A stretch of 58,306 bases of DNA, taken from contig CAZLCI010000003.1 of NCBI GenBank assembly GCA_964558115.1, positions 1 to 58,306 of the forward strand, written 5' to 3'. The DNA comes from an uncultured Nitrospinaceae bacterium (GTDB taxonomy: Bacteria; UBA8248). The position numbers and the translations under genes were made by a program. Shown piece by piece: positions 13,548 through 58,306 of the stretch (position 1 is its first letter; each line of letters begins with the position of its first letter). The notes beneath the pieces were generated by a model. That model saw only the letters and a program-made list of their open reading frames with translations, was not told the DNA's origin and searched no databases.

Positions 13548-14531
13548 TTAAGAAGCAGCAGCATTTTCCTTTTTTTGTCTTTCTACCTGTGCTTCTAAAT
13601 ATTTTTCAGCAGCTACAGCAGCTGTAGTAGCATCTCCACTTGCGTTAGTAATTTGCCTTATAAGCTGACTTCTGCAATCACCAGCAACAAAAAGACCCGG
13701 AATACTTGTTTCCATATTCTGATTAGTAATTATAAAGCCAAATTCATCTTTTTCAACAGAATCTTTAATAAGATCCGTGTTTGGTGTAAAACCAACAAAA
13801 ACAAATAATCCTGTGGCATCTAATTCCTGTAATTCATCTGTTTTCACATTGCGAATTTTAAGCTTTTTCATTTCCTTGCCATCACCAACAACTTCATCCA
13901 CAACATGATCCGTAATAATTTCCACTTTTGGGTTTTCCACTAATCTGTCAACAGCAACAGCATGTGCTCGAAATTGTTCTCTTCTATGAATTAAGTAAAC
14001 TTTGGACCCATATTTGGTAAGAAAATTACTTTCTTCAACAGCACTATTTCCACCACCAACAACAGTGATCACTTCGTCTTGAAAAAAAGCTCCATCACAA
14101 AGCGCACAATAACTTACACCCTTGCCAGAATATTCAGTTTCTCCAGGAATTTCAAGCTTTCTAGGTATTCCTCCGGGTGTATAGATAACTGCCCCACACC
14201 GTCTATCACCCATGTCAGTTTTTACTAAAAAATCATCTCCATCTTTAGATATCTCAAGTACCTCTTCCATTTCTATCTTCAATCCAAATTTTATTGCATG
14301 ATCTGTGAATTTTGCCGCTAATTCAGGTCCGCCAATTAAATCAAATCCTGGATAATCTTCAACAAATTCGGTGTTTAATATTTCACCGCCTGGAGCCATT
14401 TTCTCAAAACAAACTACATTTATCTTTGAACGAGAAACATATAGACCTGCTGTCAAACCGGCAGGACCCGCACCCACAATAATTACTTCGTAATCTCTTT
14501 TACTCAAAAAAACCTCAAGAATAAAAACCAC
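13548..14531 (-). CDS. trxB: Thioredoxin-disulfide reductase (NADPH-type)
   Basis: It has the FAD motif GAGPAGLTAG, the redox CALCDG motif, and the NADPH motifs GGGNSAVEE and HRREQFRA. The ORF opens with a GTG at 14531. A TTG at 14507 with a GAGG SD is a plausible true start. Confidence 0.9.
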   Translation of the reverse strand: MVFILEVFLSKRDYEVIIVGAGPAGLTAGLYVSRSKINVVCFEKMAPGGEILNTEFVEDYPGFDLIGGPELAAKFTDHAIKFGLKIEMEEVLEISKDGDDFLVKTDMGDRRCGAVIYTPGGIPRKLEIPGETEYSGKGVSYCALCDGAFFQDEVITVVGGGNSAVEESNFLTKYGSKVYLIHRREQFRAHAVAVDRLVENPKVEIITDHVVDEVVGDGKEMKKLKIRNVKTDELQELDATGLFVFVGFTPNTDLIKDSVEKDEFGFIITNQNMETSIPGLFVAGDCRSQLIRQITNASGDATTAAVAAEKYLEAQVERQKKENAAAS

Positions 14532-14623
14532 AAAACAACTAATCTAAAAACCAGAAGATATTAACACCACTTTATGTTACTGCCAAGCCTAAAGCATATA
14601 CACAAAAAGAACTTATTTTAATC

Positions 14624-14869
14624 CTAATTTAAATCAAAGATATTCCTTATTTTATTTTTATCAAAACCAACCACTACATCTTCTCCAGCAATCATAACAG
14701 GCGTTCCGCGTATTCCAGTTTTTTCAACCAATTCTGTAAGGGCATCTGGATCTTTATCAACTAGTTTTTCCTCAAATACAATACTATGCATAGAAAGAAA
14801 CTCTTTCATTTGTTTGCAGGGGGGTCAGGTTGTAGAAGAATAAACTACTATTTTATTAAAATTTTTCAT
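14624..14869 (-). CDS. Glutaredoxin/NrdH-like small redoxin, predicted selenoprotein (U-P-P-C; Sec codon TGA at 14825-14827)
   Basis: Read on the minus strand from the ATG at 14869, which has a GAGG SD 5 nt upstream, the sequence is MKNFNKIVVYSSTT-TGA-PPCKQ. This is in frame with the 61-aa track ORF (MKEFLSMH...GTPVMIAGEDVVVGFD). Together they give an 81-codon Grx-like fold with TGA at the first Cys of CxxC. Confidence 0.75.
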
Positions 14870-14906
14870 TTTTACCTCAATTAAAGTCATGCTAATAAGA
14901 ATATTT

Positions 14907-47232: not shown

Positions 47233-47443
47233 TTTCTATTATTTTTTTATTTATATATATTTATATAGTAGTAATAGTAGCGGTGTTTGTTTTGTTGAAA
47301 ACCAAAAAAAGACTAAAATATCAACACTTTACAACACAAAAAGCAATTAAATTTTTGTTTATATCCTGTTTGTTTTGTTGATAAGTGTTTGTTTTTTTGT
47401 CTTTTTAAACATATATTAACAAAACAAAAACAACTTATTCACA
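47233..47443. other. Candidate replication origin (oriC) region: AT-rich tract, direct 15-mer repeat and DnaA-box-like sites
   Basis: There is an AT-only run at about 47233-47275. An identical 15-mer, TGTTTGTTTTGTTGA, occurs at 47284-47298 and 47367-47381. TTATTCACA at 47435-47443 fits the TTATNCACA consensus. TTATCAACA lies on the minus strand at 47376-47384. ATATCAACA lies at 47318-47326. Confidence 0.35.
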
Positions 47444-48761
47444 AAGATTCTATTTTTTCAATTAGAGAGTTTACGGTTGAGGCGATAGAGGTGTTTTCTT
47501 TTATTTGTCTTGTTATTTTGTTTGTCGAGTGAATAACTGTAGAATGATCTTTCCCCCCAAACCTTGCCCCAATCTCTGTGGTTGAAGCGGCCGAAAGCTT
47601 TCTTGAAAGATACATAGCAATTTGCCTTGGTTCGGCAAAAATCCTAGATCTGTTTTTCGATTTCAGATCCGAAACCCTAACCTGGAAGAACTCTGCAACT
47701 ATTTTTTGAATTTCATCAATCGAGATGCCTTTTTGTGGGTCTCTTATGGTGTTTTTGAGTATTTCTTTGGCGTCGTCTATGTTTATCTCGGTTCCGTGAA
47801 GAGAGGAGTGGAAAACCAGTTTCACCAAACACCCTTCCAGCTCCCTGATGTTTGACCTAACCTTTTCTGCTATAAAATGTGCAACATCTTTCTGGATGTC
47901 AAAGTTGAGTTCAGATGCCTTTTTTTGAATTATTGCGACTTTTGTTTCAAAGTCCGGGGCCCCAATGTCGGCCATTATTCCCCAAACAAACCTAGCTTTC
48001 AGTCTCTCTGCAAGCCCAGGTGTGTCTTTTGGGTTTTTGTCGCTGGTCATTATGATTTGCTTTCCGGACTCATGCAGGGCGTTGAATGTAAAGAAGAACT
48101 CTTCTTGTGTTCTCTCTTTGCCCGCTATAAACTGAATATCGTCAATTAAAAGGTAGTCTATTTTTCTGTATCTTGAGCGAAAATCCACCATTTTGTTTTT
48201 TTGTATTGATGAAATTAAATCGTTTATAAAGTTTTCGGATGACGTATAAAAAACTTTCGCCCGCTCTTTTTTTTCTAAAACCTGATGTCCTATGGCATGG
48301 AGGAGGTGTGTTTTGCCAAGACCAACGCCACCGTAAATAAAAAGAGGGTTTAGGTTTTTTGTTGAGTCTTCAATGATCTGGAGGCTACAGGCGTGCGCAA
48401 ATTCGTTTGACGCCCCTACAACGAAACTATCAAAGGTATATTTGGGATTCAAAAATTTAGGCTTCTTGGGTTTGATTAGGATTTTTTCAGGCCCACCTTC
48501 TTCCCTCGCCTCAATCTTCTTTTGTGCTTTTGAGGGCACAAACCTAAGCCCAGAAATGGAGTTCTCAAGGCTTACAACTTCTTCTATGATAGCCGAAAAA
48601 CGATTGGTGATAGTTTCGACACAAAATGAATCAGGAACTTCCACAAAAAGTTCTTTTTCATTTAAAAATATTGGCCTTGTGTTTTTAAACCACCTTTCAA
48701 ACGCTTCTTCTGAAACGCCTTTTTTTATTCCAAGTAAACAGTTGTCCCAGGCTTCTATCAT
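47439..48761 (-). CDS. dnaA: Chromosomal replication initiator DnaA
   Basis: 440 aa with the AAA+ Walker A (GGVGLGKTHLLHAIG), LLIDDIQF, and the C-terminal DnaA-box binding domain (RQIAMYLSRKL...GGKDHSTV). Confidence 0.95.
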   Translation of the reverse strand: MIEAWDNCLLGIKKGVSEEAFERWFKNTRPIFLNEKELFVEVPDSFCVETITNRFSAIIEEVVSLENSISGLRFVPSKAQKKIEAREEGGPEKILIKPKKPKFLNPKYTFDSFVVGASNEFAHACSLQIIEDSTKNLNPLFIYGGVGLGKTHLLHAIGHQVLEKKERAKVFYTSSENFINDLISSIQKNKMVDFRSRYRKIDYLLIDDIQFIAGKERTQEEFFFTFNALHESGKQIIMTSDKNPKDTPGLAERLKARFVWGIMADIGAPDFETKVAIIQKKASELNFDIQKDVAHFIAEKVRSNIRELEGCLVKLVFHSSLHGTEINIDDAKEILKNTIRDPQKGISIDEIQKIVAEFFQVRVSDLKSKNRSRIFAEPRQIAMYLSRKLSAASTTEIGARFGGKDHSTVIHSTNKITRQIKENTSIASTVNSLIEKIESL

Positions 48762-48917
48762 TTTTTCACTGTAAAAAGGGTTTAATTAATGCTCAACAAT
48801 CTAACAATTTTAATCAAAAAAACCAATACTTTATTTTTATAAATACTCAAAAAACTTTCAAACAAAAACTTTTTATTTTTTTCAAGATAATGTGGGGGCC
48901 GTTTTGTTTAACTTTCC

Positions 48918-48945
48918 TTGACAAAAGCAACCCTAGTCGGATACT
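48918..48945 (+). promoter_or_regulatory. Candidate sigma70-type promoter for rpmH-rnpA-yidD-yidC
   Basis: TTGACA at 48918-48923, a 16-nt spacer, and GATACT at 48940-48945. It lies about 40 nt upstream of the rpmH start. Confidence 0.4.
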
Positions 48946-48984
48946 TTGCAACAGTTTTTCTTATTAAATTTTATGAGGTGTTGG

Positions 48985-49125
48985 GTGAAGAGAACTTATC
49001 AGCCAAACAGAAACAAAAGAATTAAAACTCACGGCTTTAGAAAAAGGATGTCAACTACCGGCGGAAGATCTATAATGAATCGCCGTCGTGGCAAGGGAAG
49101 AAAGCGTTTAACTGTTTCTGGCTAG
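48985..49125 (+). CDS. rpmH: 50S ribosomal protein L34
   Basis: This gene is not in the ORF track because it is under 60 aa. The GTG start has a GAGGTG SD. The translation is (M)[45 protein letters not shown], the classic L34 sequence. It lies upstream of rnpA. Confidence 0.9.
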
Positions 49126-49128
49126 AAA

Positions 49129-49515
49129 GTGATGGCAATTTATTGTTTAAGAGGAAAAGATTCCTTGAGATTTCCGCCTGAACTCCGGATACGGTCCTCT
49201 TCCGATTTTGTTGCTGCAAAAAAAGGGAAGAGGCTAGACTCCTATTCATTTTCTCTCTATGTGCACAAAAGTAAGCTTAATAGGACCCGCTTGGGACTTA
49301 TAGTCTCTAAAAAAGTAGGTAATTCAGTTAAGAGAAATCGTACAAAAAGGGTTTTGAGGGAAGTGTTTAAGAATGTTTTTCCTGGCCTTAAGAGTGGTTA
49401 TGATTTGGTAATTATCGCAAAACGTGAAGTAGTGGAAAGAAGTTTTGAGGAATTAATAAAAGAACTTGATAATTCTTTGTTTATTAATAAAAACACAAAA
49501 AGGACAAAGGGGTGA
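49129..49515 (+). CDS. rnpA: Ribonuclease P protein component
   Basis: 128 aa and basic, lying directly after rpmH. It has an RnpA-like core (LGLIVSKKVGNSVKRNRTKRVLRE). The start is the GTG at 49129 or the ATG at 49132. Confidence 0.85.
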   Translation: MMAIYCLRGKDSLRFPPELRIRSSSDFVAAKKGKRLDSYSFSLYVHKSKLNRTRLGLIVSKKVGNSVKRNRTKRVLREVFKNVFPGLKSGYDLVIIAKREVVERSFEELIKELDNSLFINKNTKRTKG

Positions 49516-49757
49516 ATTTTTTTTTAAAACCGCTAACCTTTTTCTTTGTTTTTTTTATAAAATTGTATCGCCTGCTAATTTCCCCTATTCTGCCCGGAAC
49601 CTGCAGGTTTACACCGAGTTGCTCTGAATATGCATTACAGGCTTTTGCTGCTTACGGCCCCTTTCGGGCTCTTTGGCTTGTCATTAAAAGGATTTTTAGA
49701 TGCAACCCGTTCTGCGAGGGTGGGCACGATCCCATAAAGCAAAATTTAAAGGATTAA
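49512..49757 (+). CDS. yidD: Membrane protein insertion efficiency factor YidD
   Basis: 81 aa with the conserved block CRFTPSCSEYA. It has a GTGA start/stop overlap with rnpA. Confidence 0.9.
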   Translation: MNFFLKPLTFFFVFFIKLYRLLISPILPGTCRFTPSCSEYALQAFAAYGPFRALWLVIKRIFRCNPFCEGGHDPIKQNLKD

Positions 49758-49764
49758 ATTAAAA

Positions 49765-51453
49765 ATGGAAAAAAATGCTATTTTAGCTGCCGTTCTTTCT
49801 TTGGCTGTACTGTTGGGGTGGCAGTATTTTTTTGTTCCGCAAGTGCCCCAGAAGAAAAAGGTTGTCGAAACAAGAACGCTGCCAAAAGAAAAGCGGCTCT
49901 CGGGGCAGAAGAGATCTATAACAGACAGGGCAATCACCATTTCGCCCAAGAAAAGCCATGCTCTTGTGGCTAAGAACCTAAAAGGAAGCAAGAAGTCTTT
50001 GCCAAAAAATTTTAAGGAGGTTCTAGTTAAGGTTGATGTCGGCAATGCGGTCTATGGTTTGTCAAATCATGGCGCAGGTTTTGTACAGATGCAACTGAAT
50101 GATTATAAAGACGACAAGGGCAGGCTTATTGATCTGGCTAAAGGGTTTTATCCTGACCTAAAACCGTTGTTTTTTTGGGGAAAAGGAAGCGGAATATTAA
50201 ACCGTTCTGTTTATAAGGTTTATGTTAATGGACAAGAGGTAACAGAAAACAAAACAATAAAAATTAGCCCCAAAAAAGGAAGCCAAAAAGTTTCTTTTGT
50301 TTTAGAGGGCAGAAACCAAGGTCAGGTCGAAAAGACCTTGGTCTTTAGCGCCGGAAGCTACAGGATACCCACTACGATTCTCCTTCGTAACACAAAAGGC
50401 ATGGGCGCTATTGGAGTTGCCCTTGGTCCTTCGGTTGGAGGGAGCGACGGCGACACTTACGGTGGCGTTATAGAAGGGCCGATGTCTTTTGTAGACAAGG
50501 ATATTGTTTATGATAATCCAGAGTCTGACAATGAACAGCCAAAATATGACAAAAACGTCAAATGGACTTCCTTGCAGTCTAAATATTTCATAACAGCCCT
50601 AGTCCCAAGAACTGGTTCGGGTGGAGCTCAGATAAATCTTTTGAAGGCAAACAAAGACAAGGCGAATGATTATGCGGCCATAGTGCCTTTGCGATTAGAA
50701 AACTCAAGGGTTTTGGCAACCATGGACTTATATGCTGGCCCAAAGGAGGTTCAGCGCATGTCTAAATTAGGCGTTATGTTAGAAGAGTCTCTCGATTACG
50801 GAATTTTTTCTTTTGTTGCCTCACCCCTTATCTCGCTTCTAAGAATATGCAATGCCGTGACAATGAACTGGGGGCTTGCAATAATTCTTTTAACCATAAT
50901 CATAAAGCTCATTTTTTATCCACTTACACATTTTAGCATGAAGAACATGAAGGGTATGCAAAAGCTACAGCCTAAGATGGCGCAGATTCGGGAGATTTAC
51001 AAAGACGACAAAACCAAAATGAACCAGCAGCTCATGTCTTTGTATAAAGAAAATAAAGTGAACCCCATGATGGGTTGCCTCCCAATGTTAATACAAATGC
51101 CTATTTTTTTTGGTTTATACGAGGGACTTCTGGTTGCTATAGAAATTCGAAACGCCCCTTTCTTTTGGTGGATTACAGATCTTTCAAAGCAAGATCCATA
51201 TCATGTCTATACGATCTTGATGGGGATTTCAATGTTTATACAACAAAAAATGACCCCCACAGCAGGAGATCCTTCTCAGGCCAAAATGATGATGTTTATG
51301 CCTATAATTTTCTGTGGAATGTTTATTTTCTACCCTGTTCCTTCAGGCCTTGTTATTTACTGGTTTGTGAACAATGTTCTTTCAATCGCACAACAGTTTT
51401 TCGTGAATCGAACTGTGCAAACCCCGAAACTTGCAGAAGAAAAAGAATCGTAA
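49765..51453 (+). CDS. yidC: Membrane protein insertase YidC (with a large periplasmic P1 domain)
   Basis: 562 aa with one TM segment, a periplasmic domain of about 300 aa, and the conserved 60-kDa IMP core (WGLAIILLTIIIKLIFYPL, NPMMGCLPMLIQMPIFFGLY, GLVIYWFVNN). Confidence 0.95.
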   Translation: MEKNAILAAVLSLAVLLGWQYFFVPQVPQKKKVVETRTLPKEKRLSGQKRSITDRAITISPKKSHALVAKNLKGSKKSLPKNFKEVLVKVDVGNAVYGLSNHGAGFVQMQLNDYKDDKGRLIDLAKGFYPDLKPLFFWGKGSGILNRSVYKVYVNGQEVTENKTIKISPKKGSQKVSFVLEGRNQGQVEKTLVFSAGSYRIPTTILLRNTKGMGAIGVALGPSVGGSDGDTYGGVIEGPMSFVDKDIVYDNPESDNEQPKYDKNVKWTSLQSKYFITALVPRTGSGGAQINLLKANKDKANDYAAIVPLRLENSRVLATMDLYAGPKEVQRMSKLGVMLEESLDYGIFSFVASPLISLLRICNAVTMNWGLAIILLTIIIKLIFYPLTHFSMKNMKGMQKLQPKMAQIREIYKDDKTKMNQQLMSLYKENKVNPMMGCLPMLIQMPIFFGLYEGLLVAIEIRNAPFFWWITDLSKQDPYHVYTILMGISMFIQQKMTPTAGDPSQAKMMMFMPIIFCGMFIFYPVPSGLVIYWFVNNVLSIAQQFFVNRTVQTPKLAEEKES

Positions 51454-51478
51454 CTTTTAAAAAATCTGGCCAAAACCC

Positions 51479-52114
51479 ATGAATATTTTCGGTTTAAAAA
51501 TAAAACAAGGACCTGTAGTTTTTACCGTTGCCGTTTTTTTCGTTGTGGGATTTATTAATTACTACACAAAGGCTCGATACAACCCAAAGCCTTTTGTGCA
51601 AAAGATTTGTCCGCCTCAAAAAGTATGTGTTTTAGAATTTTCTGACTACGGCTGACCTGACTGTGCCTTGGTGCAGGATGCGCTTATTAAAATCGAAAAA
51701 AAATACAACGGCCGCGTAGTAGTGAAAAAATTTGCCTTTCCTCTCTCCGAAGCGACCTTTGGAGCAACCGAAGCAGTTCTGTGTGTAAAGAGTTCTGGCA
51801 AAAGAAAAATCATGAGTGGTCTGATATACAAAAACCAAGGGAAATGGAAGAACAATCGGTATCCCGAGTCTTTGTGGAAATCGTACGCAAAAAAAAGCGG
51901 CGCAGATTTGACTAGATGGGAAAAATGCATAAAGCAAAAAGACAGTTCAAAAAGAATAAAGAAATCTAGAGATTTGGGGCTGGGTTTAGGTGTAAGGGTT
52001 ACGCCTACCTTTTTTATTGGGGAGATAAAAATGGAAGGATCTAGGTCTATTGGGCAACTCAAAAGAGTAATAGAGAGAAACGTTTTAAAGCTAAACGAAA
52101 GAGCTAGGAAATGA
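51479..52114 (+). CDS. Membrane-anchored DsbA-family thiol:disulfide oxidoreductase, predicted selenoprotein (U-P-D-C; Sec codon TGA at 51653-51655)
   Basis: The ATG at 51479 opens MNIFGLKIKQGPVVFTVAVFFVVGFINYY...VCVLEFSDYG-TGA-PDCA. This is in frame with the track ORF 51668-52114, which continues LVQDAL...GVRVTPTFFIGE. Together they reconstitute the DsbA hallmark FSDY-x-CPxC and the cis-Pro TPTFF loop. Confidence 0.75.
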
Positions 52115-52872
52115 AAAAAAGACCCTCAATTTTTGGACAATTAGCCGTTGTGACAGGAGCTGCGTCTGGTATAGGGGAGGCGGTTGTGTCTCGCTTTGCA
52201 GACGAAGGGGCGAGGATAGCTCTTCTAGATAAAGACAAAAAAAAAGGAGAGTCTCTTAGTCAATATCTTTCTTCTGAAGGCGTCAATGCAAAGTTCTATG
52301 AATGTGATGTTACACAAGAAAGGTCAGTGAGTACGACGTTTGATTTAATTTTAAAAAATTTGGGATCAATTCAAATTTTAATAAACTGCGCCGGTGGTTT
52401 TTTTGAAAATCCATCTCTTGAAACTGTTACAGAAAGTCACTGGGAAGAAGTCCTTGAATTGAACTTAAAATCGGTTTATTTGTGCTCAAGAAGAGCAGTT
52501 CCTTCAATGAAAGAATCGAAATATGGAAGAATAGTTAACGTTTCCTCTCAAACCGCTCGCGAAGGGTTAGTGGAAACGTCGTTGCCATATGGAGCCGCTA
52601 AAGCCGGAGTTTTGGGTTTAACTAGAAGGCTTGCTAGCGAACTCGCCTTAGATGGAATTACAGTCAACGCGGTTGCTCCTGGAGTAGTTTTATCTCCGAG
52701 GGTTGCCGAACTACACAAAGAAAGGCTACCCAGGCTCATGTCTGAAATCCCTATGAATCGTGCGGGAGGGGCGGAAGAGATTGCTGACGGGATTTGGTAT
52801 TTGTCTACCCCCGGCGCATCTTATATAACCGGGGTTACACTTGACATTAACGGCGGCCGGTATATGGGATAA
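52111..52872 (+). CDS. Short-chain dehydrogenase/reductase (FabG-like)
   Basis: 253 aa with TGAASGIGEA, NCAG and the catalytic S...YGAAK motifs. It has an ATGA start/stop overlap with the preceding DsbA-like gene. Confidence 0.85.
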   Translation: MKKRPSIFGQLAVVTGAASGIGEAVVSRFADEGARIALLDKDKKKGESLSQYLSSEGVNAKFYECDVTQERSVSTTFDLILKNLGSIQILINCAGGFFENPSLETVTESHWEEVLELNLKSVYLCSRRAVPSMKESKYGRIVNVSSQTAREGLVETSLPYGAAKAGVLGLTRRLASELALDGITVNAVAPGVVLSPRVAELHKERLPRLMSEIPMNRAGGAEEIADGIWYLSTPGASYITGVTLDINGGRYMG

Positions 52873-52909
52873 GCGGTTCCTGAAAAGCAATTCTTTTTGA
52901 AAGCAAAAA

Positions 52910-54322
52910 ATGAACACTTTATTAAAAAATGAAACTATAGTCGCTTTGTCCACCCCTGTTGGCGTAGGGGCAATATCTATTGTTAGGCTTAGCGGTCCCA
53001 ATGTAAGACAAATTTTAAGCAAAATTTTTATTTCTAAGACCTCGGCCAAGGAGCTGCCAAAAAGGACGCCCGTCCTTGGAAATTTTATAGACATTGATGG
53101 TGAAATTTTTGACGAAGGACAGGTTGTTTTATATGAAAAGCCCAACTCTTACACCGGGGAAGATTTGGCAGAACTGTTCTGTCATGGAAGTATAGCAATT
53201 TATCAGTTTTTGATAGAGTCAGCATGTTCAGCTGGGGCAAGAGTTGCGGGGCCAGGGGAGTTCACAAGAAGAGCTTTTATTGAAGGAAAGATTGATCTGG
53301 TTCAATCCGAGTCAGTTGCGGATCTAATTTCCTCTGAAACAAGGACCTCTGCAAAAATAGCTCTTTCTCAATTACAAGGAACCCTTTCGGCGTGTTTAGA
53401 GGAAATATGGCAACAGATAGTCGAAATAGGCGCACATCTGGAAGCCTCTATTGATTTTCCAGATGAGTTTGAGCCGGGCGCAGGCCCTATGGTGCAAGGG
53501 AGGCCGCTTTTCGGCGAAGAGTTGGCACCTCTTTTTGCTAATACGGAAAAATCACTGAAAGATTTAGAGGATTCATTTCGATCTGGAAAAATTCTAAGAG
53601 AGGGCGCTCGAATTGCTATAATCGGGAGGCCAAATGTTGGAAAATCCACCCTTTTAAACAATCTATTAGGAGAAGAAAGGTCGATTACTAGCGATATCCC
53701 TGGAACAACGAGAGATACCATTGAAGAGGTTTGTGATGTAAATGGAATACCCGTACGATTTATTGATACCGCGGGCCTTAGAAATACTCGGGACCTTATA
53801 GAAAAAGAAGGAACCAAGAGAGCATATGATGCCGCCAAAACCGCAGATCTTTGTCTTTTGGTTTTGGACGCATGCAATGCAAAATCTGAATTTGAATGGG
53901 CGCAGGAGGAGGCAAAAAAAATAGAAACAAGCAAGTTGATTGTTTTAAACAAAACAGATCTTGTTTTCTCTGACATATCGGTCGAATGGAGTCCCGGCAT
54001 TCAAAGTGTTTCAATTTCCGCGCTCCAAAAAAAAGGGTTAGATTTGCTTAAAAATTCTGTTTTTGAGATTTTAACAGGAGGAAATCATCGAGAAGGAAAA
54101 ATGTTGCATACGATTTTAACAAACGAAAGACACAAAAATTTAATCAACAAGGCAAGATTGGCCCTTAAGGAAGCTTTTGTTTTATGTGAAAAAGGCTATT
54201 CCCCAGAACTTATAGCGGTTCACTTAAATGATTCTAGTGCCGCATTTTCTGAAATTCTTGGAAAAAGCTACGGAGACTCGCTTTTAGATAAGATTTTTTC
54301 AGAGTTTTGTATTGGAAAATAA
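52910..54322 (+). CDS. mnmE: tRNA modification GTPase MnmE (TrmE)
   Basis: 470 aa with the N-terminal block TIVALSTP.G.GAISIVRLSG, a G-domain (GRPNVGKST, DTAGLR, NKTD) and the C-terminal CIGK motif. Confidence 0.95.
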   Translation: MNTLLKNETIVALSTPVGVGAISIVRLSGPNVRQILSKIFISKTSAKELPKRTPVLGNFIDIDGEIFDEGQVVLYEKPNSYTGEDLAELFCHGSIAIYQFLIESACSAGARVAGPGEFTRRAFIEGKIDLVQSESVADLISSETRTSAKIALSQLQGTLSACLEEIWQQIVEIGAHLEASIDFPDEFEPGAGPMVQGRPLFGEELAPLFANTEKSLKDLEDSFRSGKILREGARIAIIGRPNVGKSTLLNNLLGEERSITSDIPGTTRDTIEEVCDVNGIPVRFIDTAGLRNTRDLIEKEGTKRAYDAAKTADLCLLVLDACNAKSEFEWAQEEAKKIETSKLIVLNKTDLVFSDISVEWSPGIQSVSISALQKKGLDLLKNSVFEILTGGNHREGKMLHTILTNERHKNLINKARLALKEAFVLCEKGYSPELIAVHLNDSSAAFSEILGKSYGDSLLDKIFSEFCIGK

Positions 54323-54368
54323 TCTGCTATAGATATAAATCAAAATTTTTTAATAATTTAAGGACGAA

Positions 54369-56282
54369 ATGGACAAGAATAATTTTGACGTAATTGTCGT
54401 TGGCGCCGGACATGCTGGATGCGAGGCTGCATTAGCTGCAGCCAGAAAAGGTTCAAGGGTTCTTCTTTTGTCAATGAATCTTGATACGGTTGGGCTGATG
54501 TCTTGCAATCCTGCTATCGGAGGGCTTGCCAAGGGTGTTTTAGTCAGAGAAATAGATGCTCTTGGTGGAGAGATGGGAAGAGCGATAGACAAAACAGGGA
54601 TTCAGTTTAGAATGCTGAACACAAAAAAGGGTCCTGCTGTACAAGCTCTCAGAGCACAAGCAGACAAACAAGAGTACCGGTTGTATATGAAACATTTCGT
54701 TGAAAACCAGAAGAACCTTGTTTTGAAACAAGGTATGTTAAAAAAGATAATAATTAAAAACGATCGGGTTCTTGGCATCGAAACACAGTTTGGCGAAGAA
54801 ATACAGGCCCCCGCAGTTGTATTAACACCAGGGACTTTTACGAGGGGCCTCTTGCACTATGGGAAAAAACAAATCAAGGGAGGAAGAGCGGGAGAGGGAT
54901 CTGCGAATGAATTTTCTGATCAGTTAGTCGATCTTGGTTTTAAAATTGAAAGAATGAAAACAGGAACTCCGCCAAGGCTAGACTCAAAAACCATTGATTT
55001 TAAAGGTCTTGAAGTTCAGCCAGGCGATAATCCTCCTATACCGTTCTCTTTTCGAACAAAAGAATTGCTTCAAAATCAGTTGCCCTGCTGGATAACCTAT
55101 ACTAACGAGGCAACTCACTCGATCATAAGAAAGAACATTGACAGATCGCCTATGTACAATGGCCAAATTAGCGCTACTGGTGTTAGGTATTGTCCTAGCA
55201 TCGAAGACAAGATTATGAGGTTTGAAGGGAAGACCTCGCATCAAATATTTTTAGAGCCTGAAGGGCTGAGGACATGCGAAATTTATGTTAATGGCCTTTC
55301 CACGAGCCTTCCGGTGGACATACAAAAGCAAATAATTCAAACGATTCCAGGGCTAGAAAACGCCGAGATGATGAGGGCTGGATATGCAGTAGAGTATGAT
55401 TTTGTTTGCCCGATGGAACTTGATAATTCTCTTATGACCAATAAAATCAATGGGTTATTCCATGCCGGGCAAATCAATGGAACCACTGGGTACGAAGAAG
55501 CGGCAGCTCAAGGCATTATGGCTGGGATAAACGCTTCTTCTTATGCAAATAACGACGCTCCTTTTACTTTGGGACGCGATGATGCCTATTTAGGGGTTCT
55601 GGTAGACGATCTGGTCACAAAAGGAACTGTTGAGCCTTACAGAATGTTTACAAGCAGGGCTGAGCACAGACTTCTTTTAAGACACGATAACGCAGACTAT
55701 AGGCTAACAGAAATGGGGCACAGGGCTGGAGTTGTAAGCCCAGAGAGTTACAATTTTTTCTTAGATAAAAAGCAGAAAACTTCAGATATGCTTGATTATT
55801 TTGAGACAACTAAAATTTATCCGAGTCCTGAAGTCCAGTCTTCCTTGGAAGCTTTGGGCAGCTCTCCTCTTAAGAAGCCCTATAAGCTTTCTGAAATATT
55901 GAGAAGGCCTGAAATTAATTTGATGGATTTAGTCGAAGCAAATCTGTCAGATGCTCCTAGCCTTGAAAATTTATGGGAGTGCCTTGACAGTGAAGGAAGA
56001 AGGTATGTTTCTGCAGAAGTAAAATACAAAGAATATTTCCAAAGAGAAAAACAGCAGGTTATAAGACTTAGATCTGCTGACAAGGTTCCCATACCCGAAA
56101 GTATTTCTTACGATCAAGTCACGCACTTAACGGCTGAGGCAAGGCAAAGATTGGCTAAAGTCAAGCCTAAAAGTCTCGGCCAGGCAAGTAGGGTATCAGG
56201 CGTAACGCCAGCTGCAATAGCTGTTTTGGAGGTCTATTTAAAAAGGCTCTCTGGCAAACCAAAAGAAAATCAAGCTTCCTAG
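54369..56282 (+). CDS. mnmG: tRNA uridine 5-carboxymethylaminomethyl modification enzyme MnmG (GidA)
   Basis: 637 aa with FDVIVVGAGHAGCEAALAAAR and conserved GidA blocks throughout (GPRYCPSIEDK-like: GVRYCPSIEDKI). Confidence 0.97.
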   Translation: MDKNNFDVIVVGAGHAGCEAALAAARKGSRVLLLSMNLDTVGLMSCNPAIGGLAKGVLVREIDALGGEMGRAIDKTGIQFRMLNTKKGPAVQALRAQADKQEYRLYMKHFVENQKNLVLKQGMLKKIIIKNDRVLGIETQFGEEIQAPAVVLTPGTFTRGLLHYGKKQIKGGRAGEGSANEFSDQLVDLGFKIERMKTGTPPRLDSKTIDFKGLEVQPGDNPPIPFSFRTKELLQNQLPCWITYTNEATHSIIRKNIDRSPMYNGQISATGVRYCPSIEDKIMRFEGKTSHQIFLEPEGLRTCEIYVNGLSTSLPVDIQKQIIQTIPGLENAEMMRAGYAVEYDFVCPMELDNSLMTNKINGLFHAGQINGTTGYEEAAAQGIMAGINASSYANNDAPFTLGRDDAYLGVLVDDLVTKGTVEPYRMFTSRAEHRLLLRHDNADYRLTEMGHRAGVVSPESYNFFLDKKQKTSDMLDYFETTKIYPSPEVQSSLEALGSSPLKKPYKLSEILRRPEINLMDLVEANLSDAPSLENLWECLDSEGRRYVSAEVKYKEYFQREKQQVIRLRSADKVPIPESISYDQVTHLTAEARQRLAKVKPKSLGQASRVSGVTPAAIAVLEVYLKRLSGKPKENQAS

Positions 56283-56303
56283 ATTAATCCCAATTTATTA
56301 AAA

Positions 56304-56319
56304 TGTTCCACGTGAAACA
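56304..56319. other. parS centromere-like site 1
   Basis: TGTTCCACGTGAAACA matches the canonical parS consensus TGTTNCACGTGAAACA exactly. Confidence 0.85.
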
Positions 56320-56339
56320 TCAAAAAATAAAGTTGTTTC

Positions 56340-56355
56340 TGTTCCACGTGAAACA
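56340..56355. other. parS centromere-like site 2
   Basis: This is an identical second copy of TGTTCCACGTGAAACA. Its start lies 36 bp after that of site 1, upstream of parA. Confidence 0.85.
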
Positions 56356-56447
56356 AAAGTATGGTTATAATGGGCTGTGTTTTTTTATTTAAATTTTTCT
56401 TGTCACAATATTATAGGCTGTATTTTTAATCAAAGAAGGAATTTTCA

Positions 56448-57293
56448 TTGATTGGCGATAATGAGTTTTGGCAAAATTCAGGCTTGATAAACAATAAAGA
56501 CAAACATTCAAAAAAGGCTTATGTAGTAGCGGTTGCGAATCAAAAGGGTGGGGTTGGCAAAACCACTACCGCAGTAAACCTTTCTGCATGTTTGGCCAAG
56601 AAGGGAAAAAAAGTGCTCCTTTTTGATTTAGATCCACAATCTAACGCTTCAAGTTCGCTGGGCTCTACTGCAGACGAAAACAACCTTTACAATCTTCTGA
56701 TTAGCGATAATGCGCCGAGCAATGAATTCGTTCAAGTAACTGATATTAAAGGACTTATGGTATTTCCGTCAACCTCAGATTTGGCTGCAGCAGAGGTTGA
56801 ATTAGCCGATGTTCCTGATCGTATTGGTAGACTGGAAAGGATTGTGAGCTTTTTTCAAAATCATTTCGATCTTATTGTTGTTGACTGTCCACCGTCTCTT
56901 GGTTTTTTGACTTTAAATGCATTTAATGCTTCTGATGAACTTTTAATACCAATGCAAGCTGAATATTTTGCTCTTGAAGGTCTAGCACGCCTTATGAAAA
57001 CTATTGAAAGAATTTCTCATTCAAATGATTTTTCGAAGAATCCTAAAATTGGAGGAATTATTCTTACAATGTATGATACCAGGACAAATCTTTCAAAACA
57101 GGTTTCGGATGAGGTTAAGAATCATGTCTCTAATCTATTGTATGAGGTTAAAATTCCAAGAAATATTAAATTAGCAGAAGCTCCAAGTCATGGACTTCCA
57201 GTGATCTCATATGACCCGTATTCACAGGGGGCAAAAGCTTATATACAGTTAGCGGAAGAATTTTTAAGAAGACTGAAAGAAAACGAACTATAA
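56448..57293 (+). CDS. parA: Chromosome partitioning ATPase ParA (Soj)
   Basis: 281 aa with the deviant Walker A block VANQKGGVGKTTTAVNL and further ParA blocks (DCPPSLG, PRNIKLAEAPSHG). The apparent start is a TTG. About 20 aa of N-terminal extension is uncertain. Confidence 0.9.
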   Translation: MIGDNEFWQNSGLINNKDKHSKKAYVVAVANQKGGVGKTTTAVNLSACLAKKGKKVLLFDLDPQSNASSSLGSTADENNLYNLLISDNAPSNEFVQVTDIKGLMVFPSTSDLAAAEVELADVPDRIGRLERIVSFFQNHFDLIVVDCPPSLGFLTLNAFNASDELLIPMQAEYFALEGLARLMKTIERISHSNDFSKNPKIGGIILTMYDTRTNLSKQVSDEVKNHVSNLLYEVKIPRNIKLAEAPSHGLPVISYDPYSQGAKAYIQLAEEFLRRLKENEL

Positions 57294-57322
57294 AACGAGA
57301 AGAAGAAAGGAGGGGCTAATAA

Positions 57323-58234
57323 ATGGCGAAAAAAGCTTTAGGTCGTGGTTTGGATGCACTTTTATCAGCTTCAAAATCCGAAGAGGTTATTTCATCAGAT
57401 TTTCCTGAGAAATCTGACGAAATAAATTTAAATCTAGTCGAACAGATACAGTTAAGTAAAATAGAATCGGGAAAACATCAACCGCGCGAAGTATTTGACG
57501 AGGAAGAATTGAAAAATCTAGCAACTTCAGTTTCTAACCACGGAGTGATACAGCCTATATTATTAAAAAAAATAGGCGAAGATAGATTTGAGATTATAGC
57601 TGGAGAAAGAAGATGGCGTGCGGCTAAAATGGCAAATCTTAGCACAATCCCCGCAATTTTTACTGATATTATGGAGAAAGAAACTCTTGAAGTCTCAATA
57701 GTGGAAAATCTTCAAAGATCAGATTTAAATCCAATAGAAGAATCAAAAGCTTACGATAGTTTAATGATTAAATATAACCTCACCCAGGAAGAAGTTGCTG
57801 AACGCGTTGGCAAGGATCGTTCTACAATCGCAAATTATATTCGATTATTGAAACTTCCCGAGTTAGTGCAGAAAAGAGTCGCAGATGGTGAGCATACAAT
57901 GGGACATGCAAGAGCCTTGCTTTCTTTAATTAAAACAGAACTGATTATAAAATTCAGTGAAAAAGCTATTAAAAGTAATTTATCTGTTAGGCAGCTTGAA
58001 TCAGAAATCAAAATGTATACAAATGGCAATACCAAAAGGAAAAAGAATGATCTCCAAGACAACAACCTGTCTGGTCTGCAAAATAATGTTTTTGTGGAGG
58101 ATGCTATTGAAAAAATTCGTTCCAGTCTTGGAACTAAAGTAGGAATTAAAGGAAATGACCACAGGGGATTGTTGGTAATAGAGTATTATTCTAAGGAAAC
58201 TCTTGAAGGTATTATAAATAAAATTCTTAACTGA
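57323..58234 (+). CDS. parB: Chromosome partitioning protein ParB (Spo0J)
   Basis: 303 aa with the N-terminal block KKALGRGLDALL, the ParB box GERRWRAA, and an HTH (LTQEEVAERVGKDRSTIANYIRLL). Confidence 0.95.
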   Translation: MAKKALGRGLDALLSASKSEEVISSDFPEKSDEINLNLVEQIQLSKIESGKHQPREVFDEEELKNLATSVSNHGVIQPILLKKIGEDRFEIIAGERRWRAAKMANLSTIPAIFTDIMEKETLEVSIVENLQRSDLNPIEESKAYDSLMIKYNLTQEEVAERVGKDRSTIANYIRLLKLPELVQKRVADGEHTMGHARALLSLIKTELIIKFSEKAIKSNLSVRQLESEIKMYTNGNTKRKKNDLQDNNLSGLQNNVFVEDAIEKIRSSLGTKVGIKGNDHRGLLVIEYYSKETLEGIINKILN

Positions 58235-58306
58235 TGTTTATAATAAAATTTTTTTTCTTTCTTTTTAATATGCAATTCAATCAATTAGAATTGATTTTTC
58301 ATTATT

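Follow-up and report, generated by a model that had tools for sequence, protein, structure and literature searches.

A reading frame interrupted by a single in-frame TGA raises the question of whether this triplet ends the gene, betrays its decay or is decoded as an amino acid. Such a frame lies at positions 14624-14869, on the minus strand, of the stretch of DNA analysed here and called the window, which comprises the 58,306 nucleotides of contig CAZLCI010000003.1 from an uncultured Nitrospinaceae bacterium (assembly GCA_964558115.1). The coding sequence is complete in 81 codons, from an ATG at 14869 to a TAG at 14626-14624, and the TGA at 14825-14827 takes the place of the first Cys of a CxxC motif. 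Very probably the gene encodes a small selenocysteine (Sec)-containing redoxin with a glutaredoxin fold, of the YruB/Cp9/Grx1 type and with active site U-P-P-C, in which the predicted Sec codon UGA is decoded by means of a selenocysteine insertion sequence (SECIS) hairpin.

Read on the minus strand, the sequence is ttGAGGtaaaaATG AAA AAT ... ACA ACC TGA CCC CCC TGC AAA CAA ATG AAA GAG TTT CTT TCT ... TAG, and its product is MKNFNKIVVYSSTT-U-PPCKQMKEFLS...VVGFD..., where U is residue 15 of 81 and is followed by about 66 residues. A Shine-Dalgarno (SD) motif, GAGG, is found at 14875-14878, 5 nt before the ATG, and it is also present in the related loci L007, L008 and L009. The mechanical list of open reading frames (ORFs) contains only a 61-residue piece that starts from an internal ATG at 14809, and this codon has no SD. 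The original prediction, made from the sequence and the same list of ORFs, had joined this fragment to the upstream codons; when the sequence was read again, the positions it gave for the ATG, the GAGG motif, the TGA and a downstream hairpin (14807-14793) were all exact.

With U replaced by C, the product matches the Pfam Glutaredoxin family PF00462 over residues 7-65 (E = 4e-13; 49.7 bits, cut-off 22.9). The match exceeds the gathering score and reaches across the UGA position, including both the CxxC and the cis-Pro. The top NCBIfam match is the YruB/Cp9 glutaredoxin-like family TIGR02196, with 74.6 bits; this value is under the curated cut-off of 88.55, and the redoxin resembles this family without attaining its curated score. 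A layout common to Grx-like, YruB and NrdH redoxins had been proposed for the joined product: the glutaredoxin fold holds, YruB is the best NCBIfam match at a score below its cut-off, while the NrdH identity was rejected. Indeed, the NrdH-redoxin model TIGR02194 gives only a weak score (47.6 bits, far under its cut-off of 85.75), and NrdH-redoxins are recognized by a C-[VMI]-Q-C motif and by an nrdHIEF operon (PMC3720550), whereas here the motif is U-P-P-C and the adjoining genes are trxB and a PrpD-like one. The Uxx-star glutaredoxin-like selenoproteins (NF041212) were also considered and discarded, since the score is 48.6 bits against a cut-off of 66 and the U is at residue 15 of 81 and not near the C-terminus.

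A HMMER search that covered all of 1.8 billion cluster representatives returned 1024 relatives of the redoxin; the names of the matched clusters added no annotation. The best 150 of these 1024 representatives, together with the matches from an earlier protein search, form an alignment of 168 proteins. In the column of the TGA, where a nucleophilic Cys had been predicted, 125 of the 168 proteins do have the Cys of a CxxC; 'WxxC' is found in 21, and 15 sequences start just past this column. The nearest database entries are of the two latter kinds, 81 residues with W (P0001-P0009) or 61 residues (P0010-P0013); W forms and truncated forms are products of gene callers that translated the TGA under genetic code 4 or took it as a stop.

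The same position was followed at the nucleotide level in 168 loci, fetched by family-alignment scans of genome collections, where the codon aligned to residue 15 was read by local tblastn: it is TGA in 74 loci, TGC in 48 and TGT in 46, so that Cys codons do align with the TGA. The TGA is kept in four Nitrospinota lineages, being conserved in the Nitrospinota loci L001-L005, L007-L009, L091 and L168, with protein identities of 75-99% and of about 40-48%. Taxa with TGA forms are Nitrospinota, Chloroflexia, Rokubacteria/Methylomirabilota, Clostridia, Terriglobia, Symbiobacteriaceae, Anaerolineae and Elusimicrobia. The closest relatives, the uncultured marine Nitrospinaceae/Nitrospinota metagenome-assembled genomes (MAGs) CAYWAX01, CAXFSR01 and JAZAHK01, are 75-84% identical and share the gene order of the window, and the TGA is found in each of them. 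In public data, 32 contigs contain the exact 61-residue fragment and others have 81-residue calls of the same gene; therefore, the TGA is not a one-off sequencing error. The variant P0011 also shows it on Tara, JGI and NCBI contigs.

Conservation extends to the codons upstream of the TGA. Among Nitrospinaceae lineages, the 14 codons that precede it show only synonymous or conservative differences and GAGG is retained; moreover, every Sec form with sufficient upstream sequence has an in-frame start 9-14 codons before the UGA. For further comparisons a set of 65 distinct Sec forms and 91 Cys forms was used. In the former, the codon at the position of the internal Met of the window is GCG in 37 and ATG in only 4; thus, the orthologues do not begin there.

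The feature that separates the two sets is a hairpin, GAAAG(A)-GUU-(U)CUUUC, located at 14793-14807 of the minus strand, 17 nt past the UGA and within the codons for the peptide K-E-F-L-S. It had been noticed by eye and its role left unsettled; comparison identifies it as the core of the SECIS element. Its 15 nucleotides (G-AAA-GAG-TTT-CTT-TC) are nearly invariant in the Sec forms, including those from GC-rich genomes, where such codons would be disfavoured and yet are retained. All five stem pairs (G1AAAG5 / C11UUUC15) are formed in 63/65 Sec forms and in 1/91 Cys forms; the loop starts with GU in all 65 of the former but in only 23 of the 91 latter, and the peptide itself is present in 53/65 and 1/91, respectively. 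The orthologues therefore do conserve a stem-loop 3' of the UGA. When a 9-pair helix is placed on the alignment, 90.4% of the cells are paired, compared with 46-66.5% if the 3' partners are slid, and RNAalifold, run without guidance, arrives at the same helix. Double changes are observed at five of the nine pairs, for example at 20-36 (CG 41, UA 9, AU 2) and at 26-30 (AU 54, GC 4), and the covariation score was reached by none of 500 shuffles; at pair 20-36, two of the four U-U cells belong to the window and to L007. More compensatory changes are found in L108 (AGG...CTC), L208 (ACA...CTG) and L212 (GTA...CTA), as well as in L160, L164, L165 and L168.

A covariance model built on the 59 Sec forms from outside Nitrospinota, and used to search both strands of the window, gave a sole full-length match at 14827-14786, with 30.9 bits and a rough E-value of about 7.5e-8; the runner-up was a fragment of 13.8 bits. 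Conversely, the plain RNA folding proposed as a check with the original prediction did not reveal the element, since the minimum free energy fold of the 71 nt past the UGA is not significant (z = -0.81); the element is thus recognizable by comparison only. With respect to bacterial elements of the Escherichia coli fdhF type, in which the GU of the loop is the contact for SelB, the redoxin hairpin is alike in its G-U-(U/A) loop about 23 nt past the UGA, but Nitrospinaceae keep only an upper stem of 5-6 bp, and the bulged U and the long lower stem are not conserved. Its form also fits the description of bacterial SECIS elements as having a small apical loop with a G, shortly past the UGA (PMC1088965).

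Some loci depart from the usual association of TGA and hairpin. L027, L176, L186 and L213 are Cys forms (TGC) with an intact hairpin and look like recent Sec-to-Cys conversions, or like precursors of Sec forms; in L189 and L193 the TGA is present and the hairpin is degraded at the homologous position. The same TGA, spacing, GUGAAAGAGUUUCUUUC module and peptide KEFLSEN are also carried by L216-L222, from Oscillospiraceae, Clostridium aciditolerans, Wansuia, Bacillus renqingensis and Clostridium tanneri, which are thioredoxin-fold proteins with 26-34% identity to Grx1 of C. oremlandii; this sample is biased, since it was found through the pattern KEFLSENN.

Sec-glutaredoxins have been known since 2005. 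They were first predicted from Sargasso Sea data, with ten sequences (PMC1088965), and Grx (PF00462, UxxC) appears in the list of prokaryotic selenoproteins of a recent review, ahead of the group 'predicted with high confidence' (PMC13188914). The best PDB match of the Nitrospinaceae redoxin is 7C10, Grx1 of C. oremlandii (cGrx1), with E = 1e-15 and 45% identity over 75 residues. It is described by its authors as a native selenoprotein whose motif is U(C)PXC, crystallized with Sec changed to Cys, and as a glutathione (GSH)-dependent reductant of the selenoprotein MsrA (PMC7642778); both biochemical and structural studies exist for this Grx1, from Clostridium/Alkaliphilus oremlandii OhILAs (Kim et al. 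2011, cited in PMC13188914; PMC7642778). The two proteins share the fold, a U-P-x-C active site, a similar length (81 residues for the redoxin, 84 for 7C10) and the K-E-F-L-S peptide, and the spacing between UGA and hairpin and the SECIS sequence GAAAGAGU(U/A)UCUUUC are common to close Alkaliphilus relatives of cGrx1. Indeed, loci 76-81% identical to cGrx1, from Alkaliphilus and related Clostridia, have the TGA and the same hairpin, whereas the Cys forms of this clade have lost the hairpin, except for three TGC forms with the hairpin intact, probably recent Sec/Cys switches. The two differ in the active site, UPPC in the redoxin and UPHC in cGrx1, in the host, an aerobic marine Nitrospinaceae as opposed to an anaerobic Clostridium, and in gene context, since the redoxin gene is followed by trxB and no msrA is seen adjoining it. 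The redoxin is thus a further member, in marine Nitrospinaceae, of a long-known Sec-glutaredoxin family.

A second group of relatives consists of the Cp9/YruB-type thioredoxins (TIGR02196) and of Bacillus cereus BC3987 (PDB 3ZIJ/3ZIT; match with E = 3.6e-10), of 75-80 residues and with the same glutaredoxin fold. They have in common with the redoxin the cis-Pro, the G-F residues and a strand of the form [IV]-x-[ILV]-[YF]-[ST]. The C-P-P-C of BC3987 is the Cys version of the U-P-P-C of the redoxin; these proteins have Cys where Sec is predicted here. Cp9 and BC3987 are glutaredoxin-fold proteins that work as thioredoxins, and the gene for Cp9 lies between those for a thioredoxin reductase (TrxR) and a peroxiredoxin (PMC3720550). 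Differently from Cp9, no peroxiredoxin gene adjoins that of the redoxin, and a PrxQ-type gene is found about 2.7 kb past the right end of the window, approximately 46 kb away. NrdH-redoxins are likewise small, of glutaredoxin fold and reduced by TrxR; the redoxin lacks their motif and operon.

Two other genes with a TGA in place of a redox Cys are present in the same genome. The first, at 51479-52114 on the plus strand, would give a membrane-anchored, DsbA-like protein of thioredoxin fold, with 211 codons and the motif EFSDYG-U-PDC (TGA 51653-51655); the ORF list has only a 148-residue fragment of it (51668-52114). The read-through product matches Pfam Thioredoxin_4 over residues 48-199, across the TGA, with E = 2e-18, and it scores 47.5 bits, under the cut-off, with the (seleno)lipoprotein family NF041057 of NCBIfam. 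The Nitrospinaceae MAG CAXFSR01 (L175) has this TGA too, surrounded by synonymous changes, on the contig that also carries the redoxin gene of that MAG. At 14 nt past the UGA there may be a 6-bp hairpin, GGUGCA-GGA-UGCGCU, which is not significant alone (z = -0.27). The second gene belongs to the UGSC family; it lies about 5.4 kb outside the window on the right, on contigs whose identity to the last 11 kb of the window is 99.86-99.96% (L169:15980-16510; also L170 and L171). It contains AALGG-U-GSC (TGA at L169:16268-16270), its product reaches 139.5 bits with NCBIfam NF041046, above the cut-off of 125, and an 8-bp hairpin with a GUG loop follows; gene callers split it into ORFs of 96 and 72 residues. 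Two 75-residue ORFs near this gene were also inspected for an in-frame TGA and set aside as encoding small membrane proteins. The in-frame TGAs of the DsbA-like and UGSC genes argue that the genome decodes Sec; an organism unable to insert Sec would be very unlikely to have three such codons at redox Cys positions, in three families known to include Sec forms.

Several results weigh against this interpretation. Neither selA, selB or selD nor a tRNA-Sec turned up in the window, its flanks of 10 kb on either side or any of the fetched loci. Regular expressions for SelD, SelA and SelB motifs matched nothing in the six frames of the window; ARAGORN detected no tRNA-Sec in the window or in any of the loci, the window being devoid of any tRNA gene. 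Searches of the window and loci by tblastn with E. coli SelA, SelB and SelD sequences, of which that of SelA alone was confirmed, produced only EF-Tu-like matches in loci of the candidate phyla radiation, and only enterobacterial proteins were among the matches of a database search with SelA. As for the hairpin, the score of the covariance model owes a part to protein-coding similarity (TGA, TGC); in the window itself the hairpin is a short one with little stability (-4.0 kcal/mol, z = -1.98), the lower stem of the GC-rich homologues being unpaired in Nitrospinaceae, where only the upper stem of 5-6 bp and the GUU loop are left; and no relevant Rfam match was obtained, either for the whole window at the gathering threshold or for 14600-14900 with permissive settings. 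Finally, adjacency to a TrxR gene is absent from the 18 Sec-form loci of other phyla with enough flanking sequence, and cGrx1 is described as reduced by GSH (PMC7642778); the reductant of the redoxin is therefore uncertain.

Other explanations of the TGA were compared with Sec insertion. The lack of Sec genes in the window, in its flanks of approximately 20 kb and in the fetched loci would agree with a Sec-independent readthrough by a near-cognate tRNA for Trp or Cys, in which the hairpin acts as a stimulator or is kept for the sake of the K-E-F-L-S peptide; the leaky UGA-C context, found in 47/65 Sec forms, points in the same direction. However, C follows the codon in 63/91 Cys forms as well, so that this context is unspecific, and Cys forms vary both peptide and codons freely, KEFLS being present in only one of the 91. 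The conservation is at the nucleotide level, with fixed synonymous sites and compensatory changes of pairs; in addition, the family includes a described native selenoprotein (PMC7642778) and the genome has the two other TGA-at-redox-Cys genes. Such a readthrough is thus very unlikely. A decaying pseudogene, or a gene limited to the 61-residue C-terminal piece from Met 14809, which has no redox motif, is highly improbable: this ORF is called on many contigs and the hairpin is weak in the organism of the window, but across Nitrospinaceae the 14 upstream codons are in frame, with synonymous or conservative changes, and the SD is kept, while the internal codon, itself without SD, is ATG in only 4/65 Sec forms. 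Moreover, the short piece would be devoid of strand beta-1 and of the active site of the fold.

A reassignment of UGA to Trp or Gly (genetic code 4 or 25), with a residue other than Sec at this position, could be suggested by the W of the public calls P0001-P0009 and by the low GC content (36% in the window). It is nevertheless extremely unlikely, since 9 of the 51 large ORFs of the window end in TGA at normal lengths, which indicates that there is no global recoding; the position corresponds to the catalytic Cys of 125 homologues, the same TGA is found in GC-rich genomes and in Clostridia with the standard code, and the W calls stem from short contigs. As to an error of sequencing or assembly for TGC or TGT, a single base change would indeed restore Cys, but diverged orthologues have the same TGA, and so do independently assembled data from ENA, JGI, NCBI and Logan, which leaves this explanation a negligible likelihood. 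The decoding of UGA as Sec is therefore the preferred interpretation.

The gene next downstream of the redoxin is trxB, on the same strand at 13548-14531, which codes for a thioredoxin-disulfide reductase (NCBIfam TIGR01292, 356.1 bits, cut-off 343.45); no terminator-like site was detected between the two genes. This adjacency is kept in 8/8 Nitrospinaceae loci, and a TrxR-like gene is also found in 8 Cys-form loci, at 0.06-2.5 kb from the redoxin within the fetched locus. As a family-wide feature TrxR synteny was rejected, because it holds only in Nitrospinaceae and in some Cys forms. The TrxR link of the redoxin is thus moderately supported, and from this gene arrangement the trxB product is the probable reductant.

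A mechanism can be proposed on these grounds. Translation would begin at ATG 14869, and at the UGA (14827-14825) the ribosome would meet the SelB-Sec-tRNA complex, held by the stem-loop 17 nt downstream, with its stem of 5-6 bp and a loop of 3-5 nt containing GU. Sec would be inserted instead of termination, generating the selenol/thiol active site U-P-P-C; the location of the hairpin inside the coding sequence would at the same time fix the K-E-F-L-S peptide along with its codons. Electrons would then pass from NAD(P)H to thioredoxin reductase, to the Sec-redoxin and finally to a peroxiredoxin, methionine sulfoxide reductase or other disulfides. This path appears the most likely one because trxB is directly downstream, without a terminator, and because Cp9 and BC3987, the nearest relatives that have been characterized, are thioredoxin-like; the path is comparable to the Cp34-Cp9-Cp20 system and to that of B. 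cereus BC3987 (PMC3720550). Sec insertion, SelB binding, TrxR coupling and substrates are all inferred.

The flanks of the window contain the PrxQ-type peroxiredoxin gene mentioned above (L169:13528-13983), whose product may serve the Sec-redoxin as a substrate, and a CMD/AhpD-like gene (L172:4626-5024). Sec forms are known in both the PrxQ and the CMD/AhpD families; no in-frame TGA was seen in either gene. The right part of the window, at about 47400-58300, carries dnaA (47439-48761, minus strand), rnpA, yidC, mnmE, mnmG, parA and parB, and this gene set identifies it as the region of the chromosomal origin; dnaN is just outside the window (L169).

The redoxin gene is currently stored in public collections in two wrong forms, a 61-residue fragment without active site and a protein of 81 residues in which Trp occupies the catalytic position, and the same misannotation affects dozens of homologues across phyla. 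The entries with Trp (P0001-P0009, P0016, P0024, P0025, P0034, P0063, P0080, P0083, P0103, P0132, P0149 and P0153) are a systematic artefact of short contigs translated under genetic code 4, which hides Sec codons. The hairpin within the K-E-F-L-S codons is a simple and highly specific marker for correcting these calls, given its frequencies in the Sec and Cys forms.

A broader proposal can be advanced only tentatively, and it is rather doubtful: that the thiol-redox network of marine Nitrospinaceae depends in part on selenium, with at least three selenoproteins (the TrxR-linked Sec-redoxin, the membrane DsbA-like protein and the UGSC protein), and that the UGA-hairpin-KEFLS unit is a near-fixed RNA cassette common to different phyla. 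If this were true, all three selenoproteins of Nitrospinaceae would be invisible in current annotations, and the cassette would be shared even by the thioredoxin-fold proteins L216-L222, in spite of their low identity; the structure of the RNA would then have dictated a protein motif over a very long time, or it would have moved between genes.

These data leave the knowledge of Sec decoding and of glutaredoxins unchanged, and their value is mainly for annotation and ecology. No paper on selenoproteins in Nitrospinaceae was found in literature searches. In the dark ocean, nitrite is oxidised chiefly by marine Nitrospinaceae; on the basis of their gene sequences these bacteria would join the organisms that use selenocysteine, and this hints at a possible selenium requirement in oceanic nitrite oxidisers.

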